A stretch of 64,000 bases of DNA from Isurus oxyrinchus (lineage: Eukaryota). Positions within the stretch are counted from its first letter, which is position 1. Each line of letters opens with the position of its first letter. Location: NCBI GenBank assembly GCA_026770705.1, contig JANJGN010000018.1, positions 40,548,001 to 40,612,000 on the forward strand, written 5' to 3'. The notes under the pieces are model-generated. The model was not told the DNA's origin, searched no databases, and saw only the letters and a program-made list of their open reading frames with translations. Of the stretch, positions 3,782 to 59,875 are shown piece by piece. Both the position numbers and the translations under genes were made by a program.

Positions 3782-3893
3782 TTAGCAAGCTGCGTGAATG
3801 CACACGGTGAACTACCCCGGTGTCCACAGATATAGAAACTCTTGCCTTTGGTTGTTCCATCTCTCACTCCTGTTTTCAGAAAACAGGGTGTTC
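3782..3893 (-). CDS. TTF2: TTF2 coding exon 2 (GRF-type zinc finger: [22 protein letters not shown])
   Basis: AG acceptor 3895-3894, GT donor 3781-3780, 112 nt, phase 1 to 2. [17 protein letters not shown] matches the recalled TTF2 N-terminal motif. Confidence 0.93.
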
Positions 3894-4359
3894 CTGCAGG
3901 ACACAAAGAACACAGACAATCCAGACAAGAGTTAGGATGAAGACATTTTTAAAAAAGGAAGGCTTGCATTTATATAGCACATATCATAAGTTCAGGACTT
4001 CAGCCAGTAAAGTACTTTTGAAGTTTAGTCACTGGTGTGATGTGGCAGTCAACGTGTGCACTGAAAACTCTAACACGGCAATGAAATATATAACTAGACT
4101 ACCTACTTTATGTGTTAGTTCAGGGATAAATGTTGGCCAGGGCATCAGCAGAACTCCCCTGCTCTTCTGTGAATGGTGCAAGGGATCTTTTTATGTCCAC
4201 CTGCAAGGGCAGACTTGGCTTAACATCTCATCCAAAGATGGCAGCTCCAATAGTGTAGCACTCTGAGTACTGCACTCCTTAAATATTCACTCTATTTGAA
4301 AATATACATATCCACTATTTATCCAGCCAACCTCACCCATGGACATATTAAACATACAA

Positions 4360-6286: not shown

Positions 6287-6708
6287 AAAAACAAAAAAAA
6301 AAAACTGCGGATGCTGGAAGTCCAAAACAAAAACAAAAACAAAAACAGAATTACCGGGAAAAACTCAGCAGGTCTGGCAGCATCGGCGGAGAAGAAAAGA
6401 GTTGACGTTTCGAGTCCTCATGACCCTTCGACAGAACTTGATTTCGAGTCCAAGAAAGAGTTGAAATATAAGCTGGTTTAAGGTGTGTGTGTGGGGGGCG
6501 GAGAGATAGAGAGAGAGAGAGGTGCTTGTGTGGACAAACAAGCAGTGATAGAAGCAGATCATCAAAAGATGTCAGTGACAATGGTACAAAAGAACACATA
6601 GGTGTTAAAGTTAAAGTTGGTGATATTATCTAAACGAATGTGCTAATTAAGAATGGATGGTAGGGCACTCAAGGTATAGCTCTAGTGGGGTTTTTTTTTA
6701 ATTTTTTT
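6287..6708 (-). mobile_element. 5'-truncated young PLE copy (terminal repeat only), TTF2 intron 1
   Basis: Near-identical to 26298-26718; TSD TAGACGAAGGT 6276-6286 / 6709-6719. Confidence 0.9.
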
Positions 6709-6966
6709 TAGACGAAGGTCTCGGTCTCCCGAAGGGACAATATCCGACAGAGAGACAGGAGTCTCCATCTTGCAGCACCAACATTCCAAACGCCCGCGGC
6801 TACCATGGTCATCGACCCACGTGGGAAACAACCGGAAATTCCCCTGTTTCAACACCCTGATTAGACTAAAACCTAAAACTCCTCCTGATTGGTCACTCCA
6901 ACGACCAATTAAACGACCTCATATCCGGAAATGTTTCCAACCTCCGACGGGATTCAATCTAATTTC

Positions 6967-7152
6967 AAGACAAAACAAAACTGCGGATGCTGGAAATCCA
7001 AAACAAAAACAGAATTACCTGGAAAAACTCAGCAGGTCTGGCAGCATCGGCGGAGAAGAAAAGAGTTGACGTTTCGAGTCCTCATGACCCTTCGACAGCA
7101 TCCGCCAATGCTGCCAGACCTGCTGAGTTTTTCCAGGTAATCTGTTTTTGTT
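6967..7152. mobile_element. Palindromic mini-PLE insertion (two tails-outward fragments)
   Basis: Minus arm 6967-7098, plus arm 7101-7152; TSD TTCAATCTAATTTC 6953-6966 / 7153-7166. Confidence 0.88.
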
Positions 7153-7225
7153 TTCAATCTAATTTCCCTCAGTTTATACACACACAGACATTTCCAGTTA
7201 ATAGTTTCTGAATATTTAAACATAC

Positions 7226-10690: not shown

Positions 10691-13246
10691 ACATAGGGCT
10701 GGATTTTCACCAAGTCAGGATGACTTGGGAGCCCTTTAAAAATGGTGGCTGGGACCCGACTCCAGGATTCCCAACCCCATTCCCGGGATTTCCAATTTTA
10801 GGGAGTGCCTTTTAAGGGCAAGGGCTGGTTTGGGTCAAAAGCCTGCACCCCAGACTTGGCCGGCTCCATTGTGGGGATAGGATGTCCTAATCCTCTGCAA
10901 TTTTCCTGGAATTGGGCCATGTTTTCAATGAGTCATGTTTCACGGCACCTCAGAGGGAGACAGTGTCATAAGTGTGGAGGACAGCAAACTGCAATCACAA
11001 TCACACTGATTATTGTCAGTGCTTGACCTGTGCTGTTTCAGTGCTCTGGACAGGGCACAAGACAAACTAGAGAAATTTATTCTGGGAGAGATGGAAACTT
11101 CACTCCAATGGAACAGCATTATTCAAATTTTAGGAAAAATGGTTACATATTCCACAGCAAAGCTTCAGAGGAAAAACTAACATAAACTGTTGCTGGCACG
11201 ATGTCCAAAATCCAGCACCATCAGGACCATGACTGTGCCAGATTTCAGATTTTCCTGGATTTTGTACAATAGAATCAGGAAAGGCACCATTTATACTGGC
11301 AAAATGTAACCTCATTGCCCAAAGCTTTTACACGTTTGACCCGATGGATTCAAACTTCTCCTGAACGGCTCTCCAAAGTCAGGCTGAGTTGCTTCAGGCA
11401 TCATCGGATGCCCTTTGATGCCTGTTATGCCCGTAGTTGCACAGAACCCAGGTCAGTCACAGAAAGTCAGGTTCTGGTTCTCCTGCTCCTTGGCTGGGCC
11501 GGAAGCTAGCCAGGGACCTGCTATTGCTCGCTGAGCACTTTCACGTGCCGTTAGCACCAAACCGATCGACCTTTCGTCCCAGAGTTACAGCCAGATAACC
11601 AATCAAAAGGTATCTGGGGCCACGCGTTCGGGGTGGGGGTTCCAAAAACTCCAGAGCTAGTGCACCAGTATAATATGCTCCGTCCTTTCGACCGAACCGT
11701 CTCTGCGTGAATCAGATGAGTAACACCAAAGCAGAAGGTGTCTGATCGCATCGAATTGTTGAGGAGAAATCATCAACCAACGTAATACTGTAACCTCACC
11801 TACAGGGGCATTCATTTCCATTTTCATGGATGTACTGTTTTCAGATAATTCTGGTCTTTGGACAGCCAGATTTTGTACATCATACTTGCAGTACAGTGAG
11901 ACCAGAAACTTTTCTTTTAAAGTGTCCTGTATTTATGACTTACTTTAGAATTAGCTTCATTCACTTTATTGTGACTTGTATTATAACTTGTAAATAACTG
12001 ACACATTGTTTAATGCTCAATTTGGTATCAGAAAGAAGAATTATTCCTATTAGCTAGGAGACACTTCCACATACTCAAGCACGGACTTTAAGTAATGATA
12101 ACAGAAGTGATATTTCTAATTGTTGGATAAGTCATTTACCCAATAAACACATTCAAAAAGCTAGAGACTGTAATATGATGAGTCACTTCATTTATTAATG
12201 AAAAATATTAATCTTAAAATTCCTAACCGACAATATAGTGTAGCACAAAATCAGATTGTGTGGATTTAATGAAGGGCTCATGCAACTGGCTTCTCCACAT
12301 CGCCAGCACCACCAGTTCTCAAAGGCAGCCACAGTCTCTCTCTTTCTAAATACAACTTATTCTTTATACCTTTTCTTTATAATTTTTTTCATGCTGAATG
12401 GAGTCTCATCCTATGTTGTATGACCACCCAACTTTTCAAACTGATTGCCAAACAGAGATGAGAGGCCCCATGCCTTTTCATACCATACTGCTACTTATTG
12501 TTGCTTTTCCTCAAGCTATAGCTTTGTTGTAAAAAAAACTTTGATGCTTTTACCCTGCTGTGATGAAAAACCAGTGTTCCAAAAGCTTATATGTTTCAAT
12601 CGAATGCTTCTTCAATCTCAATATTTATCCACCTAGCTTATTTATATATTTTTATGTTACAACACCCTTGGTCCTGAAATTGATTTTTCTACAATGTTAT
12701 CAGCAACGATAAGAGAAAAAGACAAACTTTCTGAGAGCACTATTGTGCTAATTCTGTCTACTGTTTTGTCTGTTAGAATTAAGAGGGATGTAATAACATA
12801 TTGATATTTTATACATAGTTCAAGGTGAGAAAAGAGCTCCCATTTGTTGCTTTGTAAACTTATTTTCCTGTCAGAGTTCATAATGTTATCATACTTCCTC
12901 TTCTAATTTGTTTCAGGATCTTTTTTTTTAGAAAAAAAGCAAACCATTACTGCTATATATCACCTCCCAACATGTGTGGTTACCCAATTGTCATTCTGTT
13001 GCTGCATAACAATGATATTGTTCTTGAGAAATGCTGATGTGTTGCAATATTGATTTAAAGCACAAGAAAAGACAGAATTGAGTGGTTTGAATTTACAACT
13101 GATCATATCTTCTGCCTCAAGGGTCACATTTACCTGAATTCCTGTAATATTGTGCACACCTAAAGGCACCAATATTTTATCTGCAGTTCAGGGGTTGTTC
13201 TGGTGGTTGGTATAAGGCATAATGTTGTTTCCCAAACTAGACATAT

Positions 13247-13966
13247 GGGGGGAATTTTATCCCTCCTGGTGGTGTGTTTGGAGGTGGGGGTGGGCATTTA
13301 ATTAGGCAGGAGAGTGGCGTGCTTCTATCAGAATTAAGTCCGGGCAAGGACGGCCCACGTTCAGACTTCCCACCCAGCTACCAAAGCCCTTAAGTGGGCA
13401 ATTAATGACCACTTAAGGGTCTCACCCGCCACCAGTAGGTGGGCCTGTTGCCACTCTGAGCACAACGAGCAAGCCTTTGCAGGCTGCTTGTGGTCTTCTG
13501 AGGGTGGGGAGAGGCGTCCCTGCCTCAAAGGCACTCAGTGCGAGTTTGAGGTCCCAGCATTGGGAAATGGAGTCCCCACTGAGTGCCATCCCGTTTCCCT
13601 TGCTGCCGAACCTCTACCCCCTTACCAGTAACCCTTAGCCCATGATAAACCTCCCACCATAACTTACCTCTGGCCTGGGTTGCTTCTCAGTCCTGGACCT
13701 CTGCTGGCTGTTGTTCCTGCAGCAGCCATTGCCTCCCTGGTGACACTAGTGATCAAAAGAGTTGCTGGCCTCTGATTGATTGGCAGCTCCCGGTGCATGG
13801 GATTTCTGCCCCTAGGGTCCTTGATCCCAGGCAACGCCCCAGTGGCCACTTAATTGCCTGAGAGGCAGTTAATACCAGCGGACCTTCTCGGAGGAGGCAA
13901 AGCAGGTCTCTCGCTGGCTCTACAGCCAGCAGGCAAGACTCCCTATGTCTCCATAAAATCCCCCCC
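13247..13966. mobile_element. Harbinger-type non-autonomous element; same family as 2097-2712 and 59876-60637
   Basis: TIRs GGGGGAATTTTA / TAAAATCCCCCC; shared internal motifs (cttaagtgg, tggcctctgattg, ggtccttgat). Confidence 0.7.
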
Positions 13967-14046
13967 AAACATTAGTTCTCTTTGAGTTCCATCGATTAAC
14001 CAGTATTCTCAAGTTAAAGGATTCTGAGAATGAGCTCTATAGTACA

Positions 14047-16900
14047 TTTTTTTTATTCATTCACGGGATGTGGGCATCGCTGGCTAGGCCAGCATTTATT
14101 GCCCATCCCCAGTTGCCCTCGAGAAGGTGGTGGTGAGCTGCCTTCTTGAATCGCTGCAGTCCATGTGGTGTAGGTACACCCACAGTGCTGTTAGGGAGAG
14201 AGTTCCAAGATTTGATCCAGCGACAGTAAAGGAATGATGATATATTTCCAAGTCAGGATGGTGAGAGACTTGGAGGGGAACTTCCAGGTGGTGCTATTCC
14301 TATGTATCTGCTGTCCTTGTCCTTTTAGATGGTAGTGGTCATGAATTTGGAAGATACCATCTCAAGAGCCTTGATGAATTCCTGCAGTGCATCTTGTAGA
14401 TGGTACACACTGCTGCTACTGTGTGTCGGCGGTGGAGCAAATGAATGTGATGCCAATTAAGCGGACTGCTTGTTCCTGACAATGTGAAGCTTATTGACTG
14501 CTGTGGGAGCTGGACTCAACTAAACAAGTGGGGAGTATTCCATCGCACTCCTTACTTGTGCTTTGTAGATAGTGGACAGGTTTTGGGGAGTCAGGAGGTC
14601 AGTTACCCGTCACAGGATTCCTAGGCTCTGACCTGCTGTTGTAGCCACAGTATTTATATGGTTAGTCCAGTTTAGTTTCTGGTCAATGGTAACCCCCAGG
14701 ATATTGATAGTGGGGGATTCAGTGATGGTAATGCCATTGAACATCAAAGAGTGATGGTGGGATTCTCTCTTGTCGGAGATGGTCATTGCCTGACACTTTG
14801 TGGCGCGAATGTTACTTGCCACTTGTTAGCCCAAGCTTGGATATTGTCCAGGTCTTGCTGCATTTGGACATGGACTGCTTCAGTATCTGAGGAGTCGTGA
14901 ATAGCGCTGAACATTGTGCAATAATTAATGAACATCCCCACTTCTGACCTTATGATGGAAGGAAGGTCATTGATGAAGCAGCTGAAGATGTTTGGGCCAA
15001 GGATGCTACACTGAGGAACTCATGCAGTGATGTCCTGGAGCTGATATGACTGACCTCCAACAACCAAAAACATCTTCCTTCATGCTCGGTATGACTCCAA
15101 CCAGTGGAGAGTTTTCCCTCTGATTCCCATTGACTCTAGTTTTGCTAGGGCTCCTTCTTGCCACACTCGGTCAAAGGTGACCTTGATGTCAAGGGCACTC
15201 ACTCTCACCTCACCTTGGGAGTTCAACTCTTTTGTCCATGTTTGAACCATGGCTGTAATGAGGTCAGGAGCTGAGTGGCCCTGACGGAACCCGAACTGGA
15301 CGTCAGTGCGCAGGCTATTGCTAAGCAAGTGCCAATTGATAGCACTGTTGATGATCCCTTCCATTACTTTACTGATCATGGAGAGTAGACTGATGGGGCA
15401 GTAATTGGCCAGGTTGGATTTGTCCTGCTTTTCATGTACAGGACATACCTGGGCAATTTTTCACATAGCTGGGTAGATGCCAGTGTTGTAGCTGTAGTGA
15501 AACAGCTTGGCTTAGGGGTGTGGCAAGCTCAGGAACACATGTCTTCAGTACTATTGCCAGAATTTCATCCAGGCCCATAGCTTTTGCAGTTTCCAGTGCC
15601 TTCAGCTGTTTGTTGAGATCATATGGAGTGAATTGAATTGGCTGAAGACTGACATCTGTGATGCTGGGGATCTCCACAAGAGGTCGAGATGGATCATCCA
15701 GCTGGTACTTCTAGCTGAAGGTTGTAGCAAATGCTTCAACCTTACTTTATGCACTGATGTGCTGGGCTCCCCCATCATTGCACATGGGGATATTGTGGAA
15801 CCTCCTCCTTCAGTGAGTTGTTTAATTGTCCATCACCTTTCACGACTGGACTGCAGAGCTTAGATCTGGTTGTAGAATCACTTAGCTCTGTCCGTCATTT
15901 GCTGCTTACTCTGTTCGGCGTGCTGTGTGATCCTGTGTGGCAGCTTCACCACGTTGAGGCTTCATTTTTAGGTATGCCTGATGCTGCTTCTGGCATGCCC
16001 TCCTGCACTTTTCATTGAACCAGGGTTGATTCCCCTGGCTTGATGGTAATGGTAGAGTGGGGGATATGCCGGACCATGAGGTTACAGATCGTATTTGAGT
16101 ACAATTCTTCTGCTGCTGATGGCCCACAGTGCCTCATGGATGACTAGTCTTGAGTTACTTGAACTGTTCGAAATCTATCCCAGTTAGAACAATGGTAATG
16201 GCACACAACATGATAGAGGGCATCCTCAATGTGCAGGCTTTGTCTCCACAACGACTATGTGGTGGTCTCTCCTACTGACACTGTCATGGACAGGTGCATC
16301 TGTGGCCAGCAGGTTGATGAGGATGAGTTCATGTATGTTTTTCCCTCTTGTTTGTTCCTTCACCACCTGCCACAGACCCAATTTAGCAGCTATGTCCTTT
16401 AGGACTCAGCTATCTCGGTCAGTAGTGGTGCCATCGAGCCACTCTTGGTGTTGGATATTGAAGTCCCCCATCCAGAGTACACTCTGCGCCCTTGCCACCC
16501 TCAGTGCCTCCTCCAAGCGGTGTTCAATATTGATTCATCAGCTGAGGGGAGAGCAGTACATGGTAATCAGCAGGAGGTTTCCTTGCCCATCTTTGACCTG
16601 ATGGCATGAGACTTCCAGAGTTGATGTTGAGGACTCCCAGGGCAACTCCTCCCGATCATATACCACTGTGCCGCCACCTATGCTGGGTATGTCCTGCAGT
16701 GGGACAAGACATAGCAGGGATGGTGATGTCTGGAACATGATCTGTAAGATATGTGAGACAGCTCTCCAAATTTTGGCACTAGCCCCCTGATATTAGTAAG
16801 GAGGAATTTGCAGGGTCAACAGGGCAGAGATTGCTGTTATTGTTTCAGGTGTCTAGGTTGATGCCAGGTGGTCTGTCCGGTTTCATTCCTTTTTTGCGTC
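14047..16900 (-). mobile_element. CR1-group LINE, decayed ORF2 (endonuclease + RT) with 3' tail
   Basis: SKVMEGII..QFGFRQGHS..LDIKVTFDRVW; ILGVTIDQKLNWTNHI; 3' end at 14047. Confidence 0.85.
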
Positions 16901-17259
16901 TTTTCAGAGGGCATTTTAAGAGTCAACCACATTGCTGTGGATTTGGAGTCACATGTAAGGATGGCAGATTTCCTTCCTTAATTGACATTACAGCATTTGG
17001 TTGTATGGTTTCATGGTGATTATTAGATTTTTAATTCCAGATTTTTATTGAATTCAAATTCCACCATCTACTGTGGTGGATTCAAACTGCTCTGAATTAC
17101 TAGTCCAGCAACAATGCCACTACACCGTCGCCTCACAGCGGCAGAGCCAGGAATCAATTAGCAACAGGTATCTGGGGCTATTCTGAATCCCTCATTACAT
17201 GTAATTTACAAATTTCTTGTGTACATCATCTCCAACAAGAAAAAAAATCATATATGTCA

Positions 17260-17540
17260 TGACCGCCAAACATCTCAAGGTGCTTTACAACAAATGAAGT
17301 ACTTTTGAAGTTTCATTACTGTTGTAGGAAATGCAACATTCAGTTTGTACGCAGCAAACTTCCACAAGCAGCAATGTGATAATGACCAGATAAATATTAA
17401 CTGAACGACAGCTTCTCCACCAATGCAGTACTGAATTATTGTCAGCCTTGATTTTTGTGCTCAAGTCCTGGAGTGGAACTTGAACCCACAATCTTTGGCT
17501 TCGGAGACAAGAGTTCTACCAACTGAGTCATGGCTGACAT
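17260..17540 (-). mobile_element. Deu-domain SINE (related fragments at 3310-3460, 3950-4280, 40990-41210, 54420-54550)
   Basis: tRNA-like head gtgggttcaagttccactccaggacttgagcac and conserved aagtacttttgaag...agcaatgtgataatgaccagata block. Confidence 0.6.
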
Positions 17541-20500
17541 TACAAATGTATTGAAAATTAACTACTTCCATTGTTCTTACATTGACAGATAACAACAGTA
17601 TTGGCGTTATCACAGCAATCATTCTGAAATGATGTCACTTCACCAGCAGGCTTCCTGCTATATCACATCAATCTGAATCTTTGCACCTTCAACCAAACCA
17701 TATTCCCATTTAATTTTAGTTTTTCATTTGGCTGACCAATATAAAATTTGGCATCCAATTATTTTCTATTTCATTTAACCCCTTTTTGAGCCTGATTTAA
17801 GTAGAAACATGTTCCATACAAATTAATGTAATGTAACAAATGGAGATCAGTCGTTCTTAATAGTTTTTGTTGTTCTGGTCCTAAATTCTGTCTGCCTAAT
17901 CATTCTTTTAACTACATGTACATTGTCTTATCATGTTTGCACAATTTCTTTATGTCACTTCACCTGATATCTTGCCAAATTGCATTTTAGTGAAATCGTG
18001 CCATTTCTTCTAGCAGCACATGATTAAAATTTACACACAATAACATAAAACAAAGGCAAAATTACAAAAGAAGGACTTAAAGAGGCAAGTGACCATATTG
18101 CAAATCATTATCCATCCATTATTTGGTCCTTTTCTTTGTTTCGGGTACTTCATTGATTCAACATGGTGTATTTTGTTTTGTTAAAGATGGGATTGTTCCT
18201 TTCTTCTTTAACATGAGTCTGCAGTCCAACCAATTGTTGAATCCCAATTGATTTGCTTTCATTTTGTTTCCAAAAATATAGAAGTTTAAAGTTTTGAGCA
18301 CATCATAATGCCAGATAAATATCATACTACCTTGTGCCAACAATTGCCATTAATAAGAGAAGTCTCTTTCCTCTGAGCAGCAAAGAACATCCTTTCAATT
18401 TAAAAAGCAATAACTCTCCATTTAAGTTAGAATTTATCAGAAAGTAAACAAATTATGAACTGAAAAGGGAAAGATCTTCCAAAGGCTGGTGCCCCTGAAA
18501 AGGTTTAATGGTAACAGTTTGTTTTAACATATCTGTTTTTGGGGCAACATAGGCATGTTTTAGAGATGCATTTTCATTATTAGTCACAGCTTCAAAAGTC
18601 AAAAAGCATTAGTTCGGTTGGTTTAAAAACAATTTCCCCAACTGCCATCATAATCAGAGGTATTTTAAGATCTTAATCTTACTGACTACTTTTCTTAATG
18701 CAGTTTTAACAATTCTATTTGTTCATTCCACTAAGTCTGACACTTGCAGGTGCTATGGAATGTGAAAGATATTTCTGTTCTATTCCTAATACTGTAGATT
18801 CCTCTCCTGCCCTGATGCACAAATCATGCTCCGCTATCACTATCAATCACCTTGATGTTACCACCTGGAAGGAACCTATTCCACAAGAACTGTTGCAGTA
18901 GGAAGTGTGGTGGTATTGCTTCAAACTGATACTTAAAAAAAAAACTAGTAGAGCAAATAGAATAAGAGATTAATGACTTGCTCACTTTGAAAAATCTTTT
19001 AGGGTTTGGGGAGGAGTCAGCCAGCACAATTGCAGACCCTGATGAGTTACTAAGTGCATTAAGGAAGCAATTTGAAAAAGTTCAAACTGTGACTTTATAA
19101 TTTTTGAAAGCTGTCTTTACCTTCTATAAAAAACTTCTGTCCACTTTAAATGGTATAATGTAAATTACAGTCAAAATAAATCCAAACCACATATCTTTGA
19201 GAAAAGAATAAAGTCAAACGCTTGCATGAAATTGCAACGGTTTTCCTTAAATCTCACATTTTGAGGGTACTTTCTTAAATTCAAATGAACTCACTTTTAA
19301 AAACCATACTCACACTTTCAACTCCAGGATCGCAGAATTCACCCCCATAGCGCCACTTGAAGCCATGGTTGTAAGGGTGCCATATCGTGCATGCACTGGA
19401 AGCATAGTGGACCGATTGTGATGTCAAACAATGAGTATCACTGATTTGGCTTCTGACCTGCCATTTTGAACCTCACAGGTACATTTAACATTCAATTACT
19501 CCCAGCTCAAAATGTGTGCCGCTGCACAAGGATCCACCACCACCCCAAAACATTTGTTAAAGGAATCACAATGGAATTGCTAGGTGAGATGCCTTTAACT
19601 AACTTTTGCTGCTGTTCTGTGTTGTTGGAGGGATTTGGAAAAGCTTTTGAATATGGAAGGGAGTAGTGTTGGACTTTGACAAGGAAACTAGAGGAGTTTT
19701 GAGGCCTGTCAGCAAACAGGCTGCTTTCACTAATAGGGGCAATAATTGCAGTTCCTCTTGGGATGCAGCATGACAGGGATAAGGGGCACAGAGGAAGGAG
19801 GAGGTGGTGCATTCTCAGTAGAAGGCCATACCCATGTAGGTTACTGAGGGAGCACTTCCACCTACCTGCACCTCAGCCAGGAGCATTGAGGCTGCTATAC
19901 TTCGCCAAGAAGATGGTCACAGAACTGTGCCATCTGCTCGAACCAAACCTACAGCCACAAAACAAGGGCCAGTGGATCCTTTCTGATGGGTGCAGGTGAT
20001 ATTAACAACATCACAGTTTACCATGCAGTGCCCTGTATACCAGGAGAGAGGATTTCATAGTTTTCTATCTTTTTAGCAGGAGCAATCACATGGCTTCTCC
20101 AGGCTAGCAGATTTCCTGATAGCGCTGGTTGTTAGCGACTGCACATAACTGGCTTGTAGGGTCCAAGTAACAGGGAGATACACTTCAAGGACAAGGCTAC
20201 CCATCCCTGAACATGCAGTTGGTGTGTGATCATGCATGGAACATGATGTCGGTGAATGTTCATAATCCAGGCAACAGCCACAACACCTTCATTGTCAGCA
20301 GACAGCTGTACTTGTCATATTTGAGCCACCATGATGAACCAAAGGCCAGCTGTTTAGTGATGATTAAAAGCTACCCATTATACAATTAGCTCATGACTCT
20401 TCTCCACACCCGAACACACTTGGACAGCATGCCTACAATGAGACCCATGCTGCATAAGGAATGTCAAATAAGGAGCAAACCATTAGTGTTCCTAAGCAAT

Positions 20501-30526: not shown

Positions 30527-30907
30527 GCTCTCTCCCCCCTCCCCCATCCCTACCCCCTTTCTGTTTCCCCCTTCCTTTTTTTTCCAATAAATTATAAAGA
30601 TTTTCTTTTTCCCACCTATTTCCATTATTTTAAAAAAAAACACCCCCACTAGAGCTATACCTTGAGTGCCCTACCATCCATTCTTAATTAGCACATTCGT
30701 TTAGATAATATCACCAACTTTAACTTTAACACTCATGTGTTCTTTTGTACCATTGTTGTTGATATCTTTTGATGATCTGCTTCTATCACTGCTTGTTTGC
30801 CCCTACAACCACACACCCCACCCCTCCACCTCCCTCTCTCTCTCTCCGCCCCCACACACACACCTTAAACCAGCTTATATTTCAAGTCTTTCTTGGACTC
30901 GAACTCA

Positions 30908-30946
30908 AATTCTGTCGAAGGGTCATGAGGACTCGAAACGTCAACT
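30908..30946 (+). ncRNA. Minimal type I hammerhead ribozyme motif in PLE terminal repeat (variant core CUGUCGA)
   Basis: CTGTCGA-A-GGGTC-ATGAG-GACTC-GAAAC-GTC-AACT: stem II, GAAA core, palindromic ACGT stem III. Further copies at 6400-6438(-), 7064-7098(-, partial), 26397-26435(-), 42610-42648(-), 42871-42909(+), 63495-63533(+). Confidence 0.7.
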
Positions 30947-33900
30947 CTTTTCTTCTCCGCCGATGCTGCCAGACCTGCTGAGTTTTTCCAGGTAATTCTG
31001 TTTTTGTTTTTATTACAGAAGCTTAAACTGCTCTTAATTCTGTGCGACACTGTACCAAGAAACAGCAAAGGGACACACATTTAAAAGACAGTGCATAGAA
31101 CACAAAAGAAAATCTTATTATTTTACTTCAATCCTATTTTCCCACAACAAAAGTAATCTGATATTTGCTGTGGCTTTCAATTTAATTTTCTTCCTAAATC
31201 TGTGCTTACTCTTTGTATATCTAACAATTAATTTTTACTTGTCTGCTTAACAATATTAATTTGCTGTGAAAGGGTTAATACAAACTCCTCAACCTGCTGC
31301 AAAATTTTTTGATTTCCTCTCTGTTGAACAAAGGAAGGTGTGTAATTGCATTGAGCAGAGAAAGAAGGATACACTGAGAAATTCATTGAAATTCCCAGTA
31401 ATTTCTCAGCTGCGGAATCATTAGAACTGTACGTCTCACTCCTGCAAATCCCATACCATCTTTATGTCACTCACATTGTTCCCTTTCACTCTCAGATTTA
31501 AGGCTGCCTCTGTTTGGGTTCACTCAAAAAATCCTTCTCAAGTATTTTCTCCAATAATTCTGTCACAAAGATGACATCCACCACCATGCCCCATGGAATA
31601 CTGGGCTCCATGCTCCTTTAATTTTCTCATTGTTCAAATGTCTCAATCATTTCCACTGCCACATGGGTCTTATCACATCTGTGCTGGGCAGCCCCGAATC
31701 AATGTTCACACTACTACTGATCTTGGTTTCTGCCTGGCTTGCCGAACTCTAGATATTCGTAAAACTAGAGACAATAATATGTTTAATAATATGCTTCATT
31801 TATTATTGACACAACATTAATCTTAAACAGCAACATATTACTTACTATATCAATTTAAATGGGGACCTGTAAAAGTGGCTTCTCCATACCACCAAGACTT
31901 GAAAGCAGCTACAGCTTCTTTCTAAATCAATCAATCAATCAATAAATAAATAAATAAATAAATTAAAAAAACGTGGGATTTCTTTTTACCATTTTCTTTT
32001 ATGGTTCTCTTCATGCTGAATGCAACTGTTATTTTAAGACCGCCCAGGCTTTCCAACTGATTTCTAAACAGAGATGAGAGTCCCCAGGGCTTGCTATACA
32101 GTACTGCTGTTTCCAAAACCCAAGCTATAGCTTTGTTGGAAACAATCTTTGATGCTCTTATCCTGCTGTGATGAAAAGACAGTATCCCAAAAACTTTCAT
32201 CTTTCAATCCTAATACTTCTTTAAACTCTACATTTCTCCACCTGCTTTATTTATATGTGCCTACCTTTATAGTACACAACAACATCCTTGCTCCTGAAAT
32301 TGATCCTTCTATAATGTTAGCAGCATCACTGAAGGGAAAGGACAGGCTTTTCGAGAACACAATTCATTGCCAATTCTGTCTGCATTTTATTTCCACCAAA
32401 GACAAAACCGTAAAGTAAAAAAAAAATGACATTCTTACAACAATTATCAAGAAATTCTGAAGAGGCTGGGATATTTTTTTCCTCTAGAAAAGGGAAAACT
32501 GAGGGGTGATTTAATAGAGGTCCATAAAATTCTGCAGGAGGTTGATAGGGCAAAGAAGATGTTTCCAGTAGCAGGGTGTTCCAGAACTAGGGGTCATAAA
32601 TATATGATAGTCATTAATAAATCAAACAAGGAATTCAGGAGAAACTTGTTTGTCCAGAGAGTGGTAAGAATGTGGAAGATTGGAGTAGTTGAGTTGAATA
32701 ACACAGATGCATTTAAATGGAATAAGTACAAGAGGGAGAAGAATAGAACAATAATCTAGAACATTAGATGAAATAAGGGAGGATGCTCATAATGGAGACT
32801 AAACACCAGCAAGGCCAGATGGGCTGACTGGCCTGTAAATTCTATATAATTAACAACTCTCAAAATATCAAATATTCTGGAGAATCTGGTATCACAAAGC
32901 AAAGAGAACTAAATCTGCAAATCTTAGAAAAATGAAATAAAAAAACACAACATATCAATCAGTATAATTCAGACTCTTATGACAAGAAATGTACACAAAT
33001 AAGTATGAGCCAGAAATCAGTCCCTGTATATTTTATTTAACAAGTTCAGAACAATTAAATTGCTATCCACAGAACCACTAAATCAAGAGCCAGGACTCAA
33101 ATTTCCATGGAAGTTTTCTCAAGTGTAAGCAGTAATGTTAGTGGAAGATGTGCAGAAATTCCAGAAAATTGACAAAATTACAGTGGGGCAATTGAGAGAA
33201 CTCTCACAGACATAACTGGCACATGCCTCGAATGTACCAGGCATGCACCGTTGGTAGCAACCTCCGCATAATCCTGTCCAATTTATTTACCTTTTACAGT
33301 ATAGTTTGAATTTGCCTGCTAGTCTGAATGAAAATTAATTTGGCTCCTTAACAGCTTATATCAGATTTTGCTTATTGCATGCATAAAATTAATATAGTGA
33401 AAAATTAAGAACCTAATTGGATCTTACTGAGACTTTTACGTGTTATGCCTGAAGCAAGAATTTCTTATAATTGGAGCAAAGGAATGCAATGAAGTAAATG
33501 GATAGATTTAGGAAACTATACTCAGATTAATATTAGTTTGTGTTCATCAAGCATTAAGGAATGTAGATTTTGTCCAGTGGGTGGCATCGTATCCCAACTT
33601 TTAAAGAGGTACTTGGAAAATAATCCCGTATCGGGGCACTTCTGATTCAATATTATGTAGTGTTGCTTACAGTAAATCAGGGATTTTGAATGTTTGCTAA
33701 TTAGTATCACCAGGGATCAAGACTTATTAGAACAAAAGCAAAATACTGCAGATGCTGGAAATCTGAAATAAAAACAGAAATTTCTACTCAGCAGGTCAAG
33801 TAGTGTGGAGAAACAGAGTTAATGTTTCAGTACCAAAAATATTAACTCTTTATCTGCACAGATGCTGTATGACCTACCCCGACATATTATCATTGGGTGA

Positions 33901-47786: not shown

Positions 47787-47995
47787 GCACATAAATCCTA
47801 CTGCACATCCTAAGCAGAATAGAATCAACTATTTTCTGGATAAAGTTTATTTATTTATTCATTCATTCAAGGGATGTGGGCTTCACTGGCTAGGCCAACA
47901 TTTATTACCCAGGATTATAATGAATAAATAGAAAAACCTTTTCTGGAAAATAGTTGATTCTATTCTGCTCAGGTTGTGCAGTGGAATTGATGTGC
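47787..47995. repeat. Imperfect ~77-bp inverted repeat around a LINE/SINE tail fragment
   Basis: agcagaatagaatcaactattttc vs gaaaatagttgattctattctgct; arms ~47787-47863 and ~47919-47995. Confidence 0.8.
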
Positions 47996-50479: not shown

Positions 50480-50730
50480 TTAACCAAGGCTCCCTGGTCC
50501 TATTCTGAAATCTGGTGGCTCAAGGCTTGTTGGAGAATAAGTCACTGCAGGTTCTTTAATCCAAAGCAATGGAACACCATTTTTGCCATCAGATTTCTTC
50601 TGCGAATTTAGAGTTTTATAGCGTGTTAGTAAAATTGCAATAAGCAGGACTCCAAAAATTGGAAAAGGGTAGAAAAATATAAAGTAGAATAGGGCATCAT
50701 TTGAACAAATCGCATCCTGAAGAGAAGAAC
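50480..50730 (-). CDS. IGSF3: IGSF3-like terminal coding exon (transmembrane helix + cytoplasmic tail)
   Basis: Acceptor ttcctccag, stop TAA at 50482-50480. ICSNDALFYFIFFYPFPIFG...DGKNGVPLLWIKEP...YSPT.LEPP closely matches the recalled IGSF3 C-terminus. Confidence 0.9.
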
Positions 50731-53700
50731 CTGGAGGAAAGAAATAATGAAAGATCAGAAACTCATTTTCTTTTTTGTCATACCAGAAAATTCTCTTTAC
50801 AGACACTGATGGGATGTCCTGTTTATTTTCAGCATTTTCTGTTTTATTTTAGATTTCCAGGATTTGAGTTTTTTTTTTTGTCTACACATAAGAAGCCTTT
50901 TCACCAGAATTTGTAGATTGATCATGTTCACAAGCTTAATCTGAGTACATTCTGCAGCTATATGCATAACCTGAGGCATTACTATTCAAGGCATTTCCCA
51001 CCCAGGCTATGAGTCACCTATCAGGCATGCTGACAAATTACTTTTGAAATCTTCTCTTCCTGGGTGGCTGAGGGAGTGTAAACTGATTGACACCAGTGTG
51101 TTACAGTAAAAAGGCCTGAAAGGGAGTTAAAAAGAGGGTGTTATTGATTCTTATAATACTCATGTCATACTCCACAAGAACACAGGTTTAGTTGGTTGAG
51201 TATCAACAGGACTGTGAAACTGAATTAAACCTTTAAATCACACTTTTATGAAGTGCTTTGCAATGTTCTTCTAAGTTAAAGGCACTATATAAATGCAAAC
51301 TATAAATGTAAATTGTGTGCTGCTGCCGCACATTGGTCACACTCTATAATTCAACAACACCTTGCATTTATTGTGCCTTTAACATAGAAAAATGACACTG
51401 AGCTAAAGAAAGAAATGTTAGAATGGCTACCTAAAACCTTAGTAAAAGAGGTGGGCTTTAAGGAGTGTCATAAAGAGGGTATGGGGTGGAAAGGAGGGGT
51501 TCAGGGAGGAACTGAGACTGTAAAGTGAGAGAGGCTTATAGAGATGGGAAGGGACATGGCCATGAAGACATTTAAACACAAAATGAGAATTTTAAATTTG
51601 AAGCATAGGAGGACTGGAAGTCAATGATGGGGAGTGAAGATAGGGTGGTGGGAGAGTAGGATGTGGTGCGGGATAGAATGTGGGCAGCAGAGTTTTGCAT
51701 GAGCTGAAGGTTACTGAGGATGAAAAATTAGAAGATGGCTAGAGAGCATTGGAATAGTCAAGTATGAAGGTTACAAAGGCATGGATGAGAATTTCGACAG
51801 CAGATGAGCTGGAAGTAGAAGTGGTGGTTAAGGAAATGGAATAAGCTCATTGTTGTGATGGATATACATTATATAAGTCCTTAATGTGTAATCCAATGCT
51901 ACTGAGTGGATAATTTTCTCATTACAGAATCCAAAGAAATTTACCCTGTCCTTCTTGTTGTGATCAAGAGGGAATGGAGATGCTGATGGCCAGGAGGGCT
52001 GGGGGGAGGCTGAAAACTTTCCTGAGAAGCCTGGGCTGAGCAATCCTGTTCCTCCTGGTCCACCAGGATTATGAAAAAACCACTTACTTTAGGAAGCTGA
52101 TAGCTTTAGCCTCAGGTCAGCTGTGAGGAATCTCAGAGGTCACGTTTCCCCCTCATATATTATTAAATTTGAGTCACGAGACCACTGACATCAGCAGGCT
52201 CTGCCTTTGGTATGTTAGTTAGGACCCTTGGCCTTTTGCAGGATGCTCGTCCATGAACTAATTTCTGGAACTTTGTGGGGCCAGGTTGCCTAATTGTGAA
52301 ATTTTAAGCCCCACAACCCTTCCCTGCCAGTCAATGGACAGGGTTTTAAATTGAGGAGTGTATCACTGAGACTAATCAGACCCCAAAATAACACCTCTAC
52401 TCATAGTTCTTATCAAAAATGTCCAATCATATTCTATCAAAAAAGAATTTCTGTGGTGTAAAACTGCCAAGTCAGTCCCTCTGCCATCCAAAAACCTTTA
52501 AAATCAGCTTTATTACAAATTTACACGTTAAAAAAAATTGATCAAGAAAATCACAAACATATCCACTGCACTTTCTATTCACCCAGCTGTTTCCCCAGTA
52601 CCTCAAACTTGGTAGGCCAACTCTGTGCATGTGCCCTTGAGTCAATCCCACTCTAATTTCATCTATGTCCATTCTACATTCTACCATCTCCTGCCATTCC
52701 TTGCTCCCTCCCTCTTGTAGCTTCTCACTGTTCAAAAATTAATAAATAGAGAGAAAAAAAAACAAGAAATAGAGGAAAAGTAACAAAGACACAGGAATAT
52801 ATTAACAGAGTTCAACAGAGAGAATAGGGGTGCAGTGATATTTTAACAGAGATAAATGGAGATAGTAAGGGAAACAGGAAGAGATTAATAGAAATGGGGA
52901 GAATAAGGCACAATATTAACTCACATTTTGCAGTAGTTTTCCCGTAGAATATCCTGCACTGTTTTACTTTAAACACACACTAAGCAGTGGTGCTGGGGCA
53001 GGGGCAAGGTGGAATTAGGCGACTAAAGACATTGTCCAGGGGGATGTTGGGGAGTCAGGGCAGAAATGAAAAGTTGCCAATAAGAAAAACAAGGTCCTGA
53101 TAGCAGTCAAAGTATCCAGGCAGTGGAAACAGAGAGATGGTTGTGAGTTACATAACAACCTTGGTGATGTAAGTATGATACATGGGTATGTGGGCAAGTT
53201 TATCATGGGTACCAAACAGACTCCAAGGTTTGCTATTGATCAAATGGATTCAGAATAGTTGCTGGTTGAGATGGTTCAGATAGAGAAGGCAAACAACTCA
53301 GAATCTAGTGCTGGTTGTAGATTTCAAGCTTCAAAGTGGTTGATTTGAGTCTGAGGCTTAATTGTAGTCAAGAAATGTCTGGGTTGTGGAGATGGTTAGA
53401 GAGATCTGTGGCCTAGAGATTAGCTATTTGACTTGAGGTCAGAGTCCTGGGTCTTCCTGCGGTATGTGGGCAGAGGCCTGGCTAGATGAAGTCTGAACCC
53501 AAGGTCTGGCTGGCCAATGGTTTGGGTTAGGTTCTCGCTGGACAGCAGAGGAGAAACAATCCAAATTTGGTATTCATGGAGAAGCAAAATCATCGTACAA
53601 GGGTTGAAAGCAGTGATGGAAGAAAGCACATGAGTGAGAGAGACACACACAAAGAAAATCAGTGAGGCTGACAAAGACAGAGAAAGAGAGAAACAAGTGA

Positions 53701-54819
53701 GAGTAACACAAACATGGAAAGACCTTAGGACAGCTTTTCAACGGATTCTCCAAGCTACTCCGGGTTGTTTGCATATAGTAGCCCTCCAACATGGACACAA
53801 GTCACAAAGTCTTCTTTCATTCCAAACATTCAGGAAAAATAAAATATTCTCTAAGTAGAAACCATTCTGACTTCAACCTTACAGCAACCACCAACCACCC
53901 AGCCCCACCACCAATCCTCTTCTTAGCTATACACTGTTTCCTTATCCAACCTGATTCAAAGAGAAACACAATGGCAGCATTGCCTCATTAAAGGTATATG
54001 AATCCTGCATTGCATACCTCAAGCTACTTGAATGCTGTGGTAGATCAATATTGTACTTAAAATCATTGCTGGGAATACGCAATATATTTTATGTTGAAAT
54101 GTTTAGATAACTTACGGTACAACTGCTATGCACCTTTTCTTTCTGGTAATGTTTGAGTTTGTTACAATATAACTTGTGCGTGCATAATCTTTATGATACT
54201 TTGTGGATTTTTAACATTAAACCCCTGTGGATTTTCAGTGTTTAAAGGGATATGGGAGCTAGGGGACCTATCTAATATCAGTCACCACTGTAGATGCGAT
54301 ATAAATTTAATATACTTTAAAATTACTTTTTAACATAAGGCATTTGTTTGGATGTATTATACCTCAGATGCGTGTAACACAGTGAACAGAGTAGTGAAAG
54401 TAAATCTGGTGTATGACTTCAGACACGTTAACTCTGGCTCACGGTTACACTCTTGCTTCTGAGCCAGAAGGTTATGGGTTTAAGTGCCACTGCAAAGGCT
54501 TGAGCATGTAATGTGAGCTAACACCTCACTGCAGCTCTAAGGAAGTGATGTAATGCTTGCAGCTCATTTCCAGCCAGCACCACAATATCAGCTAATGCAC
54601 TTCTCACACATGGATCAGACAGGTACTCAATGGCCTTTTAAGTGTCTGCAACCCTTTCATTGTTCCCATCGACCTATAAGAAAAGTCAAAATCTGTTCAC
54701 CTTCATAAAGCATTCCCAATGCATCATGCACCAGTCAGCAGGAGTGCACTGAAATTATTTAATTTAACTGATGACATATGATTCAGGAAAGATCAGCATT
54801 TTGTTGATGAGTAAGTTAC

Positions 54820-55236
54820 CTTTATCTTGTACAGTGACCATGACCAGCCCAGACTCATCCTCCCCTAGTTTGTACCAGATATTGTTGGCATTTTGAATCC
54901 ATTCCTCCACATGACAGTAGTAATTGCCCGTGTCACTGCTGGCCGAGTCCTGCACCGTCAAGCTATACAATCCATTGGAAGGTCTCTCTAACTGCAGTCT
55001 GTCCTTCATTCCCTCAGCTCCATCCAATGAGACATCGAACCCAAACACTGAATTATGATCAACTTTTAAAATTGTCTCCTTTTGGTCAGCACCTTCCTTG
55101 ACTTTCCACACGAACCAGGATACGGCAAACTGGGAATTATCTTGTGTTCGGTGGGTTACATTGCAGCAGAGCTGAAACAAGTCCTTCTCTGGTATGCTAA
55201 TGTTCAATTCTGTTTTATCCACTTGCATTTTAAATT
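54820..55236 (-). CDS. IGSF3: IGSF3-like protein, membrane-proximal Ig V-set exon with EWI motif
   Basis: AG/GT-bounded 417-nt phase 1-1 exon; LCCNV..VSWF..DTGNYYCHVEEWI. Confidence 0.85.
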
Positions 55237-57169
55237 CTGTTTGTGAAATTGAAAACAAGGAGATAACAGGTTTTAATGTTTAATCTGTGAAAATCAGAAA
55301 AAGTCAATGCACCCATTTTTCTCTCCGTTGATTAAACTCATCAATCTGATGCTCCCAACAGGGAGTCACACTGGAAGACAGTGCAGCTCAGAGAAACATA
55401 GCTGCAAAGTTGCAGTCCTATTTCCAATCCATGCTTCTTCTGAGCCTCACTTCCTACTGGGAGTGCTGGATCAGTGAATTTACTCTTATATTCATACTAT
55501 TTCCCTCAGCCAAGGGTGGAACAAGCCCAGATTCAGACACCTCTGCCCAGGTCAACCCACCAGGAGGAAAAATTGAATGACGCAGAAAGGGTTTTATCTT
55601 AAGCAGACTGTTACTGCAGTTCCTACATGTAATTATTGTACCTGACAAAGTCAGATGGGATTTTTAATTTATATAGCAGACGTGACCTCGAGATGAGAGT
55701 CAGCTGTGATAGCTTCTCACATTCAAACTGTTTGCCGACTCCTTGCCGTCCAGGACCACAGGCTAAAATAAATAAGTTGTTGAAGGGCTACATGGGTGAG
55801 CCCCTTTAGCAAAGACAAGAGGAGGGAATAAAAAATTAGAGGCAGAAAAAAGATGCAGACCAATTCAAAGCAAAGAAGTTCTTGCATTCCAAACACTATT
55901 ACACCTGAGTAACAATCATATTTTTCTACAATAGCCCTAGTATAAAGTAAATGCTGCATTAGTTTTCTTTTTTCAGTTGTGCCACACATCGTTTTGGTTC
56001 CATGGTATATTCCCACCTCCAAGCACCTTACCCTGAGGCCAGCCCCTAGCAGCTGAAGCTTCCTGGCATGGCAGTGGCTTGTAGCCAATTAAACTGTACT
56101 CATAAGGGAAATTAAGCTCTATTTTTCAACAGAGTATAAATTTTGTAGGTGGAGCACACTCCCACCGCCTGTGATGGCTGGATGCATGTTACTTTCCAAC
56201 CACTCCATAGACGCGAATGGAAGATGCAGTGCCCCTCCCTGTTGCTCCACCAGACTGGCCCTCAGCAGCTCTCACACTCATCTCATAGTGGGGGCTGCCA
56301 GCCAGCACTGTAAAAGGCATGATGTCCTGCACTCCAGCCTTGGGAAATGCTCACCACCACTAACTGGACAACAAAAGTGGAGGCTGTTAATTAACTGCCT
56401 CCTGTAAAATGAGGCCATCGGATCTGCATCTCAAACGGACGGCTTCAGGACCCAGGAACAATCTCAATATTGCCTACTGTCTAGAGACATATATTATAGA
56501 TTACAGCAAATTTCAGTTACACTACATCAAAACTGCATCTTCAGAGCCATAGCTGGAGGCTTACAATTAATTCCAATACAATGTGGATTGTCATATGGAG
56601 TTCACTGCGGAAAATCCCATTGCATAATGGCCTATTTCATGGCTTCATTGCAGCGATAATAGGCCTTTTATAGCAGATCTCAGGAATTTAAATTTTGCTG
56701 GATTATTCCTTATGGTGCAGCAATACTAATTCTTGCAGTTTCCTCAAGGACAATTTCCTCAGCATACTCGAATAAACTCTTATGTACACATATCATGTGT
56801 GGCACCATCGCATCTGATCATGTCTCACACCTTTTCTGCCTGTAGCCACCAAAGCTGGAAGCTGGATACCAGCTTAATCAGGAGTAGGTGAGGAAGAGAT
56901 GAATGTCCAGGTGGTATTTCAATACAAAGGAATTTTTTGCCAAGTAAGTCACACTGTGATTAAGTCAATATTAACACCAGCAGTGCTAATGAGATTTCAA
57001 GAGATTGCCTCAGGCAGGCTATAACTATATCATTAGATTTGCTTGGCTTTTTTTCATTTAAAAAAATTAATAACATCTGCATCTTGCAAAATGATTACGT
57101 GTAGCCAATGTCACAATTAGTATTTGAGAAATTTGAGTATAGCTGCCTGATTATACTACTGGCCAGAAG

Positions 57170-57560
57170 AACATAAGAATTAGGAGTTGGCCATTTGGCC
57201 CCTCGAGCCTTCTCTGCAATTCAATAAGATCATGGCTAATCTGATCGTGGCCTCAACTCCACTCTCCTGTCTGCCCTCCTTAACCTTCAATACCCTTGTA
57301 GATTAAACATCTGTCTAACACAGCCTTGAATATAAATGACCCAGCCTCCACTGCTATCTGGGGTAGAGAATTCCAAAGATTAACAACCCTCTGAGAGAAG
57401 AAATTCCTCTTCATATCCATCTTAAATGGGAGATCCCTTATTTTTAAACTGTGCTTCCTAGTTCTAGACTCCCCCCATGAGGGGAAATATCCTCTCATCA
57501 TCTACCCTGTCAACCCCTCCTCAAAATCTTACATTTCAAGAAGTTCACCTCTCATTCCTG
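57170..57560 (-). mobile_element. CR1 LINE 3' fragment
   Basis: ESRTRKHSLKIR..RNFFSQRVVNLWNSLP. Confidence 0.8.
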
Positions 57561-58598
57561 GCCCTTTAAGAACAACCCTACGACCACCACTTTCTTCCCC
57601 CACCTGACTGCGTATAAACATGTGTGCGTATGAGGAATACACACCCCTGCTTTTAGGCTGTGAAGGTGTAATATATTACTCGTCAGGACAACGCTGCAAA
57701 CAGGATTAACGTTGTTCAGTTACTGCCCAGGAAGAGTTTACAGAACAAAGTGTTAAACTTTACAAAGCCTATTGCATATGAATTTTAAAAGAAACTTTTG
57801 TTTAACATGGAATACCAAGTAAGATGGAATCCTGTCAAAATAATAGGCATAATAGGGGTGAATTTTGTCACAAGCCCACAGCCTGGGTAAAGTAGACAAC
57901 ACTGAGTCACTGGACAGTCTGGTGCCCTTGTTAAATTCAATCTTGTCATTAATAATGATGCATCATCCAACTGACAGGATTGTGCTAACCCATGACAGTG
58001 ACATTGAACTCCTTTGAAACATAGAAGAGCAACTAATAGTGGCACTCAAATTTTTCAGGAAACCAGAGCACATGTAAATCTTGCTAGCCCCGCATCACCT
58101 GTGTTAAGTGTGTGGAATTTTGGGGGTGGGGGTAACTCATACAGCAAGCAAGATATTTATACAATGTGCACTGTGGTACTGTGATGGGCACTGTGTTTTG
58201 GCTCTAACATCTGTATTGGAGGCAAGACAGCATAGCTCATTTGGGAACTGCTGGTGCTGTTTAAGCAGGACATTTATAATGTTTGCGGTGTTATGCTATG
58301 GATTTGATGCCAAAATAGACAAAACCTCTGTTATATTTATGATGTAAACAACATTGCAATTTAAAACTGAGGTAATTCAGTACATATCAATCGGCTGGAT
58401 GTTATTGTATTTCAGAAACCAGATTTCAGCTAATTTTCTGTATAATTTAATTCCTCAAACATCGTACAGCCATGTCTTAAGATTTCCAATAAAGAGACCT
58501 CATGTAATGTGGTCTGATGCCAATCAGAGGAATAGCTTTTGTAAATCACTCTTCAAAAATACATTTCTCCCAAATTGAAATGAATAGCTATAGAATAC

Positions 58599-59009
58599 CT
58601 GGTTGTTGTACAGTGACAGTAGTCAGTCCAGACTGATCCTCTCCCAGTTTATACCATACATCATTAGGGTCAAGTAGCCATTCTTCCACATAACAGAAGT
58701 AACTCCCAGTGTCTGATGTAGTTGCTTTCTGTAGTGTCAGACTGTAGAGTTCATTGGTAGTTTTTTCAAACTGTAGCCTATCCCTCAGGCTTGCACTGTT
58801 ATTCTCAGAGCTGCCATACTCAAAAACAGAATTCCGATTCAGGCTGAGAATAGGATGTCTATCTTGCTGTAGTGCTCTCTGGGCATACCAGAACACAGAT
58901 AGTTGGGAATCCAAGTTGGTACGATTGCTGATCTTGCATTCCAGCAGAATCTGACTATCCTCTGGCACCATAATATTTCTTTCAGTTTTGACAGTTTGCA
59001 AATTGCTTT
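58599..59009 (-). CDS. IGSF3: IGSF3-like EWI-family protein, Ig V-set domain exon
   Basis: AG/GT-bounded 411-nt phase 1-1 exon with Ig motifs LECKI..VFWY..YSLTL..DTGSYFCYVEEW. Confidence 0.85.
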
Positions 59010-59875
59010 CTGTAGGTAGAAAAAGTTTTCACTTTATTAAAAGGAAATTTGAAAGCCAAAGAATTTAAATATTATAGAATACTAGTTTCATAATTCCCCA
59101 ACAGATTTATCAGATATTCTATTCAAACACATTAACATGACTATGTTAAAAAAACGTGATTTGTGTAAACACATAGAAAATAGTTTGACCTTTTGAGCAT
59201 CAAAACAGCTCATAAAAACAGAAATTACTGGAAATCAAAGATTCACAGAATGGTTACAGCACAGAAGGAAGCCATTCAGCCACCACGTCCATGTCAGCTC
59301 GCTATAAGAATTACTCAACTAGTTCCACTTCCCTGCCTTTTCCCCATAGCCCTGCAATATTTTTCTCCTTAAATAATAAGAGTATCTAATTTCCTTTTAA
59401 AAAGCATGATTGAATCTGCTTCTATCACACTCTCGGGTATTGCATTCCAGATCCTAACCATTTGCTGCATAAGTTTTTTCATGTTGCCTTTGGTTCTTTT
59501 GCAAATCATCTTAAATCGGTGCCCTCTGGTTCTCAATCCTTCCACCAACAGGAACAATTTCTCCTTATTTACTCTATCTAGGCCCCTCATGATTTTCAGC
59601 ACCTCTATCAAATCTCCTCTTAACCTTTTCTTCCATAAAGAGAGCAGCCCCAGCTTCTCTAATCAGTCCACATAACTGTTGTCCATTCTCCTAAATCTTT
59701 TCTGCACCCTTTCCATTGCCTTCACATTCTTGGCCAGAATTGGAGATAATATATTCTAGTAGAGGCCAAACTATTGTTTTATGCTCTGTCTTTATTCATA
59801 AAGTCCAGGATCCCATATGCCTTATTTACTATTTCTCAACCTGTCCTGCCAGCTTCAATGAGCTGTGCACCTATG

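Follow-up and report, generated by a model that had tools for sequence, protein, structure and literature searches.

A decayed, locally duplicated relic in a shark genome, tentatively a dead former coding sequence of no assignable family

The CHGN set of chondroitin glycosyltransferases in vertebrates comprises CHSY1/3 and CHPF/2 (PMC8022947) together with CSGALNACT1/2 (PMC13389171). In the papers cited here, CHSY and CHPF proteins have about 800 residues and an N-terminal GT31-like domain (PMC13389171, PMC8022947), this domain is present in CHPF and absent from CSGALNACT (PMC13389171, PMC12748766, PMC8022947), and CHPF is without the DxD and xED motifs (PMC13389171, PMC12748766). The locus compared here with these proteins lies in a stretch of 64,000 nucleotides from Isurus oxyrinchus (GenBank assembly GCA_026770705.1, contig JANJGN010000018.1, positions 40,548,001 to 40,612,000 of the forward strand), hereafter the window. 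An earlier note, made from the sequence letters, proposed that 12230-19100 holds a decayed gene (copy A), with a further copy (copy B), descended from a non-catalytic CHPF-like member of a distinct subfamily of cartilaginous fishes. We suggest, tentatively, that the relic is a dead former protein-coding sequence on the minus strand, of a family that cannot be assigned, and that its likeness to CHGN proteins is most likely a coincidence.

The frame of copy A, read from 13244 to 12198, has fewer stops than its shuffled counterparts, where the best of three frames has 19.4 ± 2.7 (a count as low was reached in 19/2000). The other two minus-strand frames of the same span contain 25 and 27. Seven of the 12 stops fall inside two short intervals, 12661-12603 and 12537-12493, where copy A is out of register with copy B. 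The depletion of stops and their clustering at these places argue, with moderate strength, for a coding ancestry of the relic. The two open reading frames from which the earlier note started do lie in one minus-strand frame with two stops between them, extending stop to stop over 12960-13187 and 12657-12902, and every peptide that it quoted is found in the sequence. These include KWEY (17711-17700), TGIQVNVTLE (13145-13116), WYEKAWG..LGG (12485-12423), FSMKKIIK (12398-12375, with FSMKRTIK as its counterpart in copy B) and a peptide of 14 residues at 12284-12243. The note had carried the gene on to 19100, and nothing links 18110-19100 to the relic (51/300 shuffles were as open); the stretch 17541-18110 is likewise not stop-poor (222/300). 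The AATAAA that overlaps the end of the frame may have served as a polyadenylation signal. It is near certain that the relic yields no protein today; a run guessed to be RNA gave almost no cover on its unique parts, which is no evidence either way.

Two small features of the copy A frame are recorded in their own right. Positions 13154-13032 (minus strand) encode three N-x-S/T sequons and three cysteines in about 40 codons, as in a lumenal or secreted protein, and possibly by chance. Positions 12308-12243 (minus strand) encode C-x2-C and H-x4-C, with no Pfam match and with the first cysteine missing from copy B; we take this arrangement to resemble the zinc knuckle that ends L1/Tx1 ORF2.

Copy B corresponds to the 3' part of the relic only, and no counterpart of the upstream part of copy A was found among nine stretches of the window. 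Positions 12360-12766 and 31980-32388 are 73% identical, and a finer alignment runs past the AATAAA for about 50 further bases. Since the homology extends beyond the AATAAA, the copy probably arose by genomic duplication rather than as a retrocopy or by another RNA-mediated route. The start of the homology might correspond to a splice acceptor, with AG standing before 12757 and 32382; in copy B the pyrimidine tract is not adjacent to it. With codon frames picked blind to any family, mismatches between the copies are spread 34/34/34 over the three codon positions (148 codons), codon differences are 15 synonymous against 57 non-synonymous, and one stop in the continuous frame is common to both. 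Both copies have drifted neutrally, without protein constraint. By arithmetic, the mismatch of 23% amounts to about 0.27 substitutions per site; the 1.4% that separates the source from a relative (organism B) is roughly 20-fold lower, and decay per copy since the duplication is about 14%. The relic combines disablements, neutral divergence and a probably genomic duplication, as duplicated pseudogenes do. No parent gene was found among 1,217 word-sharing candidate proteins of 612-2000 residues, none of which is a homologue, or among 1.84 billion protein representatives.

Three insertions interrupt the relic (Table 1). Four public runs were aligned to 11800-19400, three of DNA type and the one guessed to be RNA, about half of each DNA run being read, and depth is given as contig depth summed over the three DNA-type runs. 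Summed depth was 13-266 in the flanks (11800-13069 and 17642-19400), about 2,000-28,000 in the bins of the miniature inverted-repeat transposable element (MITE) and higher again around the short interspersed nuclear element (SINE) and in the long interspersed nuclear element (LINE). This contrast and the RVT_1 match in the LINE bear out the earlier note in treating all three as repeats, and indicate that their boundaries are about right; the LINE edge at 14047 is marked by >2,000 loose ends per DNA run. The LINE, presumably of CR1/L2 type, has another copy at 39197-40771. Excision leaves 2.79 kb by arithmetic, in agreement with the roughly 2.7 kb reported before. The relic itself is no dispersed high-copy repeat, which the earlier note had named as an outcome against its proposal, as the flanks of the insertions are low copy at at least 80% identity. 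As a separate observation, depth in run X1 at 12376 and 12538 exceeds that of the main contig about threefold, which means that about two more contigs match there at at least 80%; copy B explains this in part, and there may be a third copy elsewhere. Contigs of organism B, which differs from the source by 1.4% (48/3,446 bases, two contigs), span the junctions of all three insertions, which were therefore in place before the two lineages split.

The history may accordingly be pictured as follows. The frame would have been broken before, or about when, a duplication placed at least its final 620 bases, AATAAA end included, at a distance of 20 kb; both copies then drifted without protein constraint, and the MITE, LINE and SINE entered copy A before the split from the relative 1.4% diverged. 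That the locus is a former gene, decayed, duplicated and of low copy number, is moderately supported, and the observation and the interpretation that the earlier note offered each hold in part only.

Table 1 Features of the relic and its surroundings in the window (strand: -, minus;., none given).
Feature	Positions	Strand	Details
Neighbouring exon with GRF zinc finger	3808..3912	-	PF06839 E 4.6e-6
Copy A part homologous to copy B	12144..12762	-	73% over 423 columns (blastn)
AATAAA	12191..12196	-	Overlaps copy A frame end; kept in both copies; homology ~50 bases beyond
Copy A decayed reading frame	12198..13244	-	349 codons, 12 stops
MITE-like insertion	13247..13966	.	14-base terminal inverted repeats; raised depth
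Spacer between insertions	13967..14046	-	80 bases
Decayed LINE with reverse transcriptase remains	14047..17130	-	RVT_1 E 1e-12; depth 1e5-1e7
Spacer between LINE and SINE	17131..17259	-	No family match in three frames
SINE-like insertion	17260..17540	-	tRNA-like head at 17540 end (by eye); depth ~32,000-101,000 in its bins
Candidate 5' part of relic	17541..18110	-	Met 18108; hydrophobic stretch 18072-18013 with one stop; AK.KTKIKWEY 17732-17700
Copy B, 3' part only	31755..32388	-	Same orientation as copy A, 20 kb away; AATAAA 31799-31804
Neighbouring V-set immunoglobulin exons and transmembrane last exon	50483..59028	-	V-set E 4.8e-13 and 6.7e-8

Database searches gave the relic no family. In Pfam (HMMER filters on, E up to 10) no family was found in any of nine frames (0 in 9/9) or for the minus-strand pieces of the relic, and the CHGN family PF05679 was not matched; the control, P0181, scored 302.7 bits against PF05679. 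The main frame had no match in NCBIfam or PHROGs, and viral contigs yielded no relative of it, with two pattern matches that both stayed unconfirmed. In the PDB, which contains human CHSY3 and CHPF, each search returned one match, 3DF7 (E 0.14) and 3DL3 (E 0.46), and both were rejected as unrelated. The sole match among the 1.84 billion representatives was a salmon sialoadhesin-like Ig-repeat protein (E 6.9e-5, summed over repeats), which was rejected as a chance match so summed. Matches of a plus-strand frame to WDR75 (E 0.011) and DUF6498, and of one upstream frame in NCBIfam (E 0.12) and PHROGs (E 0.11), were set aside as weak. A single-sequence AlphaFold2 model was uninformative (mean predicted local distance difference test score, pLDDT, 28). 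In the literature, where coverage of subscription journals was poor, neither a CHGN subfamily in sharks nor a gene at this locus was found to be described.

Tests directed at the CHGN family used coral and vertebrate CHSY loci, 120 CHSY1/3 proteins and another set, three of whose members are sponge-like CSGALNACT proteins. Unfiltered hidden Markov model searches of the six-frame window gave no match at copy A or B, neither of which came near the top, and tblastn of the fetched proteins gave none among the best 40 matches. Alignment of CHSY and CSGALNACT profiles to the relic with hhalign gave P 0.83, 0.19 and 0.43, and the frame-corrected combination of both copies against 23 diverse members gave P 0.32, a value as high being reached by 14/60 shuffles. 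The local frameshift-aware alignment score was equalled by 40/150 shuffles for copy A and 9/150 for copy B, and the best pairwise BLASTP matches had E values of 0.38 (a bird CHSY1) and of 9.7 and 1.8 (two sponge-like CSGALNACT). Forced end-to-end alignment of copy A with the CHSY profile reached z 2.3-3.6, and forward sums over the main frame z 1.2-2.6 with the CHSY profile. What CHGN-like signal there is in this frame is confined to the 3' part shared by both copies (z 1.1-3.4 for copy A, 0.6-2.5 for copy B); the half that carries the two open reading frames and the TGIQ..FKPL..NIIV motifs has none (z 0.4-1.4). The whole stitched relic scored z 0.3-2.5 (fitted P 0.04-0.3). Side products of this work were five bacterial loci from a prokaryote motif scan for CSGALNACT, which were not taken as family members, full-length intronless CHSY-type frames of about 780 codons on two metagenome contigs (L024:924-3263 and L025:24-2357), and a short match to the CHSY GT7 motif region on a viral contig (L078:2501-2635; 41%, E 5e-5 within candidates).

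These values were calibrated in two ways. Over both copies, 22 single CHGN members gave a median z of 2.1, which was reached by 3/115 unrelated proteins (115 of the 121 collected were tested). A one-in-forty likeness, chosen by eye among thousands of families, is the chance expectation. Membership of the CHGN family is thus not established, there being no database or profile match and a residual signal that unrelated proteins equal, and the chain of motifs said to be colinear with CHSY1/CHPF/CSGALNACT is within chance search-wide, its final cysteine motif not being kept in copy B. The stitched translation gave no significant CHGN match, which the earlier note had itself said would speak against its proposal, within the limits of the searches given above. 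Secondly, simulated CHGN members decayed by 15% scored +76 to +258, against -24 to -34 for copy A, and came down to that level only after 35-45% decay. At about 14% decay per copy, neither CHSY1/3 nor a typical CSGALNACT can therefore be the gene of which the relic is a decayed copy, and the earlier remark that it is not the simple decay of a known paralogue was right. Such poor scores fit non-homology as well as a divergent parent.

Several results weigh against reading the relic as a dead coding sequence of unassignable family. As regards coding, a plus-strand frame has 11 stops, the joint openness of copies A and B is equalled by 270/3000 shuffles (157/3000 on the plus strand), and a frameshift-aware test of openness finds 21/300 shuffles as open. 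Together with the lack of codon-position bias and of any protein match, they favour a duplicated non-coding stretch with a frame open by chance, be it intergenic DNA or the 3' end of an RNA that was non-coding or untranslated; this alternative we consider rather unlikely, given the depletion of stops and their clustering at the register shift with copy B, a frame that stays open for 160 codons further upstream with three stops, and the lack of an Rfam match in 11500-34000. As regards family, the profiles contained no CHPF, vertebrate CSGALNACT or B4GALNT sequences. Forced end-to-end alignment with the diverse profile gave z 4.0-4.4 under one gap setting (1.2-2.1 under another), and its forward sum over 13244-12198 gave z of about 3, a score as high being found in 0/150 codon shuffles, 1/150 column shuffles and 0/179 window stretches. 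On copy A, 21/22 single CHGN members beat their shuffles, with a mean z of 2.6, and a segment upstream of the insertions scored z 3.9-4.2 against the CSGALNACT-like profile, having been picked after the match was seen.

The latter group of results, and the z of about 2-3.4 that the shared 3' part reaches with the diverse profile and the CHSY profile, would be consistent with a true but very divergent CHGN (GT7) descendant of CSGALNACT-like build, dead before or at the duplication. Its parent would have had a signal anchor, a stem, a domain resembling cystatin and a GT7 domain in about 550-600 residues, and would have been a type II membrane protein of the Golgi acting on or with chondroitin chain initiation, whether catalytic or not. 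The best local hhalign segments lie at colinear places. In the candidate 5' part a Met and a hydrophobic stretch stand about 132 codons before AK.KTKIKWEY, comparable to AKP.T.IRNEY, which the sponge proteins have near residues 138-148, and with the insertions excised the span from Met 18108 comes to about 600 codons. Given true homology, this length and the possible signal anchor before the EY-like motif would make the relic CSGALNACT-like rather than CHPF-like. Against this stand the scores with the CSGALNACT-like profile itself, z 0.2-1.8 for 13244-12198 and, for the whole stitched relic, 0.3-1.9, absolute scores that are negative, a level of likeness shared by unrelated proteins, and the failure of DxD and xED to appear at the expected places. 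The whole N-terminal CSGALNACT-like profile gave z 2.3-2.6, which was matched by 2/200 shuffles but by 11/142 window stretches, and the diverse CHGN profile showed no signal in the upstream segment. Reading 17541-18110 as the 5' part also requires several frameshifts. Once the insertions are excised, about 158 codons separate KWEY from the GIQ motif, roughly double the interval in fetched family members, so that the gap from the upstream match to the main frame would have to hold about 80 additional codons. We regard a CSGALNACT-like descendant as a fairly unlikely explanation, and no less unlikely is its corollary, that the relic may preserve an extinct branch of vertebrate GT7 proteins not described before, CSGALNACT-like and more diverged than CHPF, which was tandemly duplicated next to TTF2 and disappeared early in sharks. 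CHGN descent in any form is rather unlikely, though not negligibly so.

The version put forward in the earlier note, in which cartilaginous fishes have a subfamily of CHPF-like, non-catalytic partners with intact members in other species, appears very improbable. It drew on the missing catalytic motifs, which CHPF also lacks according to the papers cited above (PMC13389171, PMC12748766). CDVD is the invariant DxD in A1 and A2 among the fetched CHSY/CSGALNACT members, and no DxD was found at the aligned place in copy A or B; GWGxED (xED) was not seen in either, FSMK..IK standing near that place in both copies, where the alignment is uncertain. Copies A and B diverged neutrally and have a stop in common, so they amount to one observation of dead sequence, and the loss of a motif from both says nothing about a non-catalytic parent. 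Human CHPF is found by the CHSY profile at E 3e-40 and by the CSGALNACT-like profile at E 3e-17, whereas the relic is not readily found by the CHSY profile and has no match to the CHPF chains 9O4G_B and 9Q8Z_A of the PDB at E up to 10. At the candidate length there is no room for a GT31 domain, and no Fringe/GT31 match was found upstream in the relic. Since many sharks and rays are represented by their CHSY1 in the protein collection, an intact orthologue, if annotated, would be expected to have appeared, and protein searches of the 1.84 billion representatives found no intact member of the supposed subfamily.

An insert that was dead on arrival, such as the 3' end of an L1/Tx1-type ORF2 or another mobile-element or virus gene, later duplicated locally, would account for several features at once: no obvious introns, A+T richness, a frame that ends at an AATAAA, drift that was neutral from the outset, host orthologues that are absent, and the C-x2-C/H-x4-C arrangement at 12308-12243. 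We hold this distinctly unlikely. The main frame is without a Pfam, NCBIfam or PHROGs match and without a relative on viral contigs, its copy number is low, no bounding terminal repeats were found among those listed, there is no poly(A) tail, the homology runs past the AATAAA, and copy B is without the nine bases that supply the first cysteine. The zf-RVT or reverse transcriptase match, the poly(A) tail and the many copies of an L1/Tx1-type 3' end were all missing from the relic. A dead former coding sequence is accordingly still the reading we prefer, with the reserve stated at the outset.

On the two sides of the relic lie neighbouring genes and other mobile elements. The GRF zinc finger exon is presumably part of TTF2, and the V-set gene is one that we take to be IGSF3/CD101-like. 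Positions 41340-47800 form a long stretch rich in A+T and poor in repeats, where an AATAAA stands on the minus strand at 41370-41375; the Ig-family gene may have its 3' untranslated region, a very long one, here. A near-intact Penelope-like element occupies 27746-30523 (plus strand), its frames of 271 and 654 codons split by one stop and matching RVT_1 and, weakly, GIY-YIG; an inverted partial copy adjoins it with 96% identity (26329-27619 and 29730-31014). Short stretches copied from the end of this element also occur as back-to-back inverted pairs at 6293-7155, 42542-43015 and 63393-63598, which are 85-100% alike in their best parts.

The locus carries little weight, being an old relic of pseudogene-like character, duplicated and lacking a parent that could be identified. 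Were the likeness to CHGN proteins true, it would represent a lost branch of the vertebrate CHGN set and would bear on the evolution of glycan synthesis in shark cartilage; in that case, too, both of the species examined have a dead gene, and there is no enzyme to study unless an intact orthologue is found.

Among the described systems, CHSY1/CHSY3 resemble the relic at 12485-12423, which aligns to their W..GFG..GG region as its best local match. They differ from it in that the relic reaches only P 0.32-0.83 and has no GT31, DxD or GWGxED, while shark CHSY1/3 are intact and strongly conserved elsewhere. CHPF/CHPF2 and the relic are alike in being without canonical GT7 motifs, as is described for CHPF (PMC13389171), and differ in that CHPF is readily found by family profiles and has a GT31-like domain, while the relic matches neither CHPF chain. 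CSGALNACT1/2 (PF05679, CAZy GT7) share with it, by eye and with weak scores, a possible signal anchor, the distance to the EY motif and short colinear likenesses; on the other side are the lack of a significant match or of a visible DxD or xED, the extra length of the relic and a score well short of that of a decayed member, in a comparison with three sponge-like members. From duplicated (unprocessed) pseudogene relics containing LINE, SINE and MITE insertions it is set apart by the lack of a parent in the searches made here, which is unusual for a host pseudogene decayed by about 14%, and it resembles them in being a tandem copy on the same strand, with neutral divergence, stops, frameshifts and a retained AATAAA.

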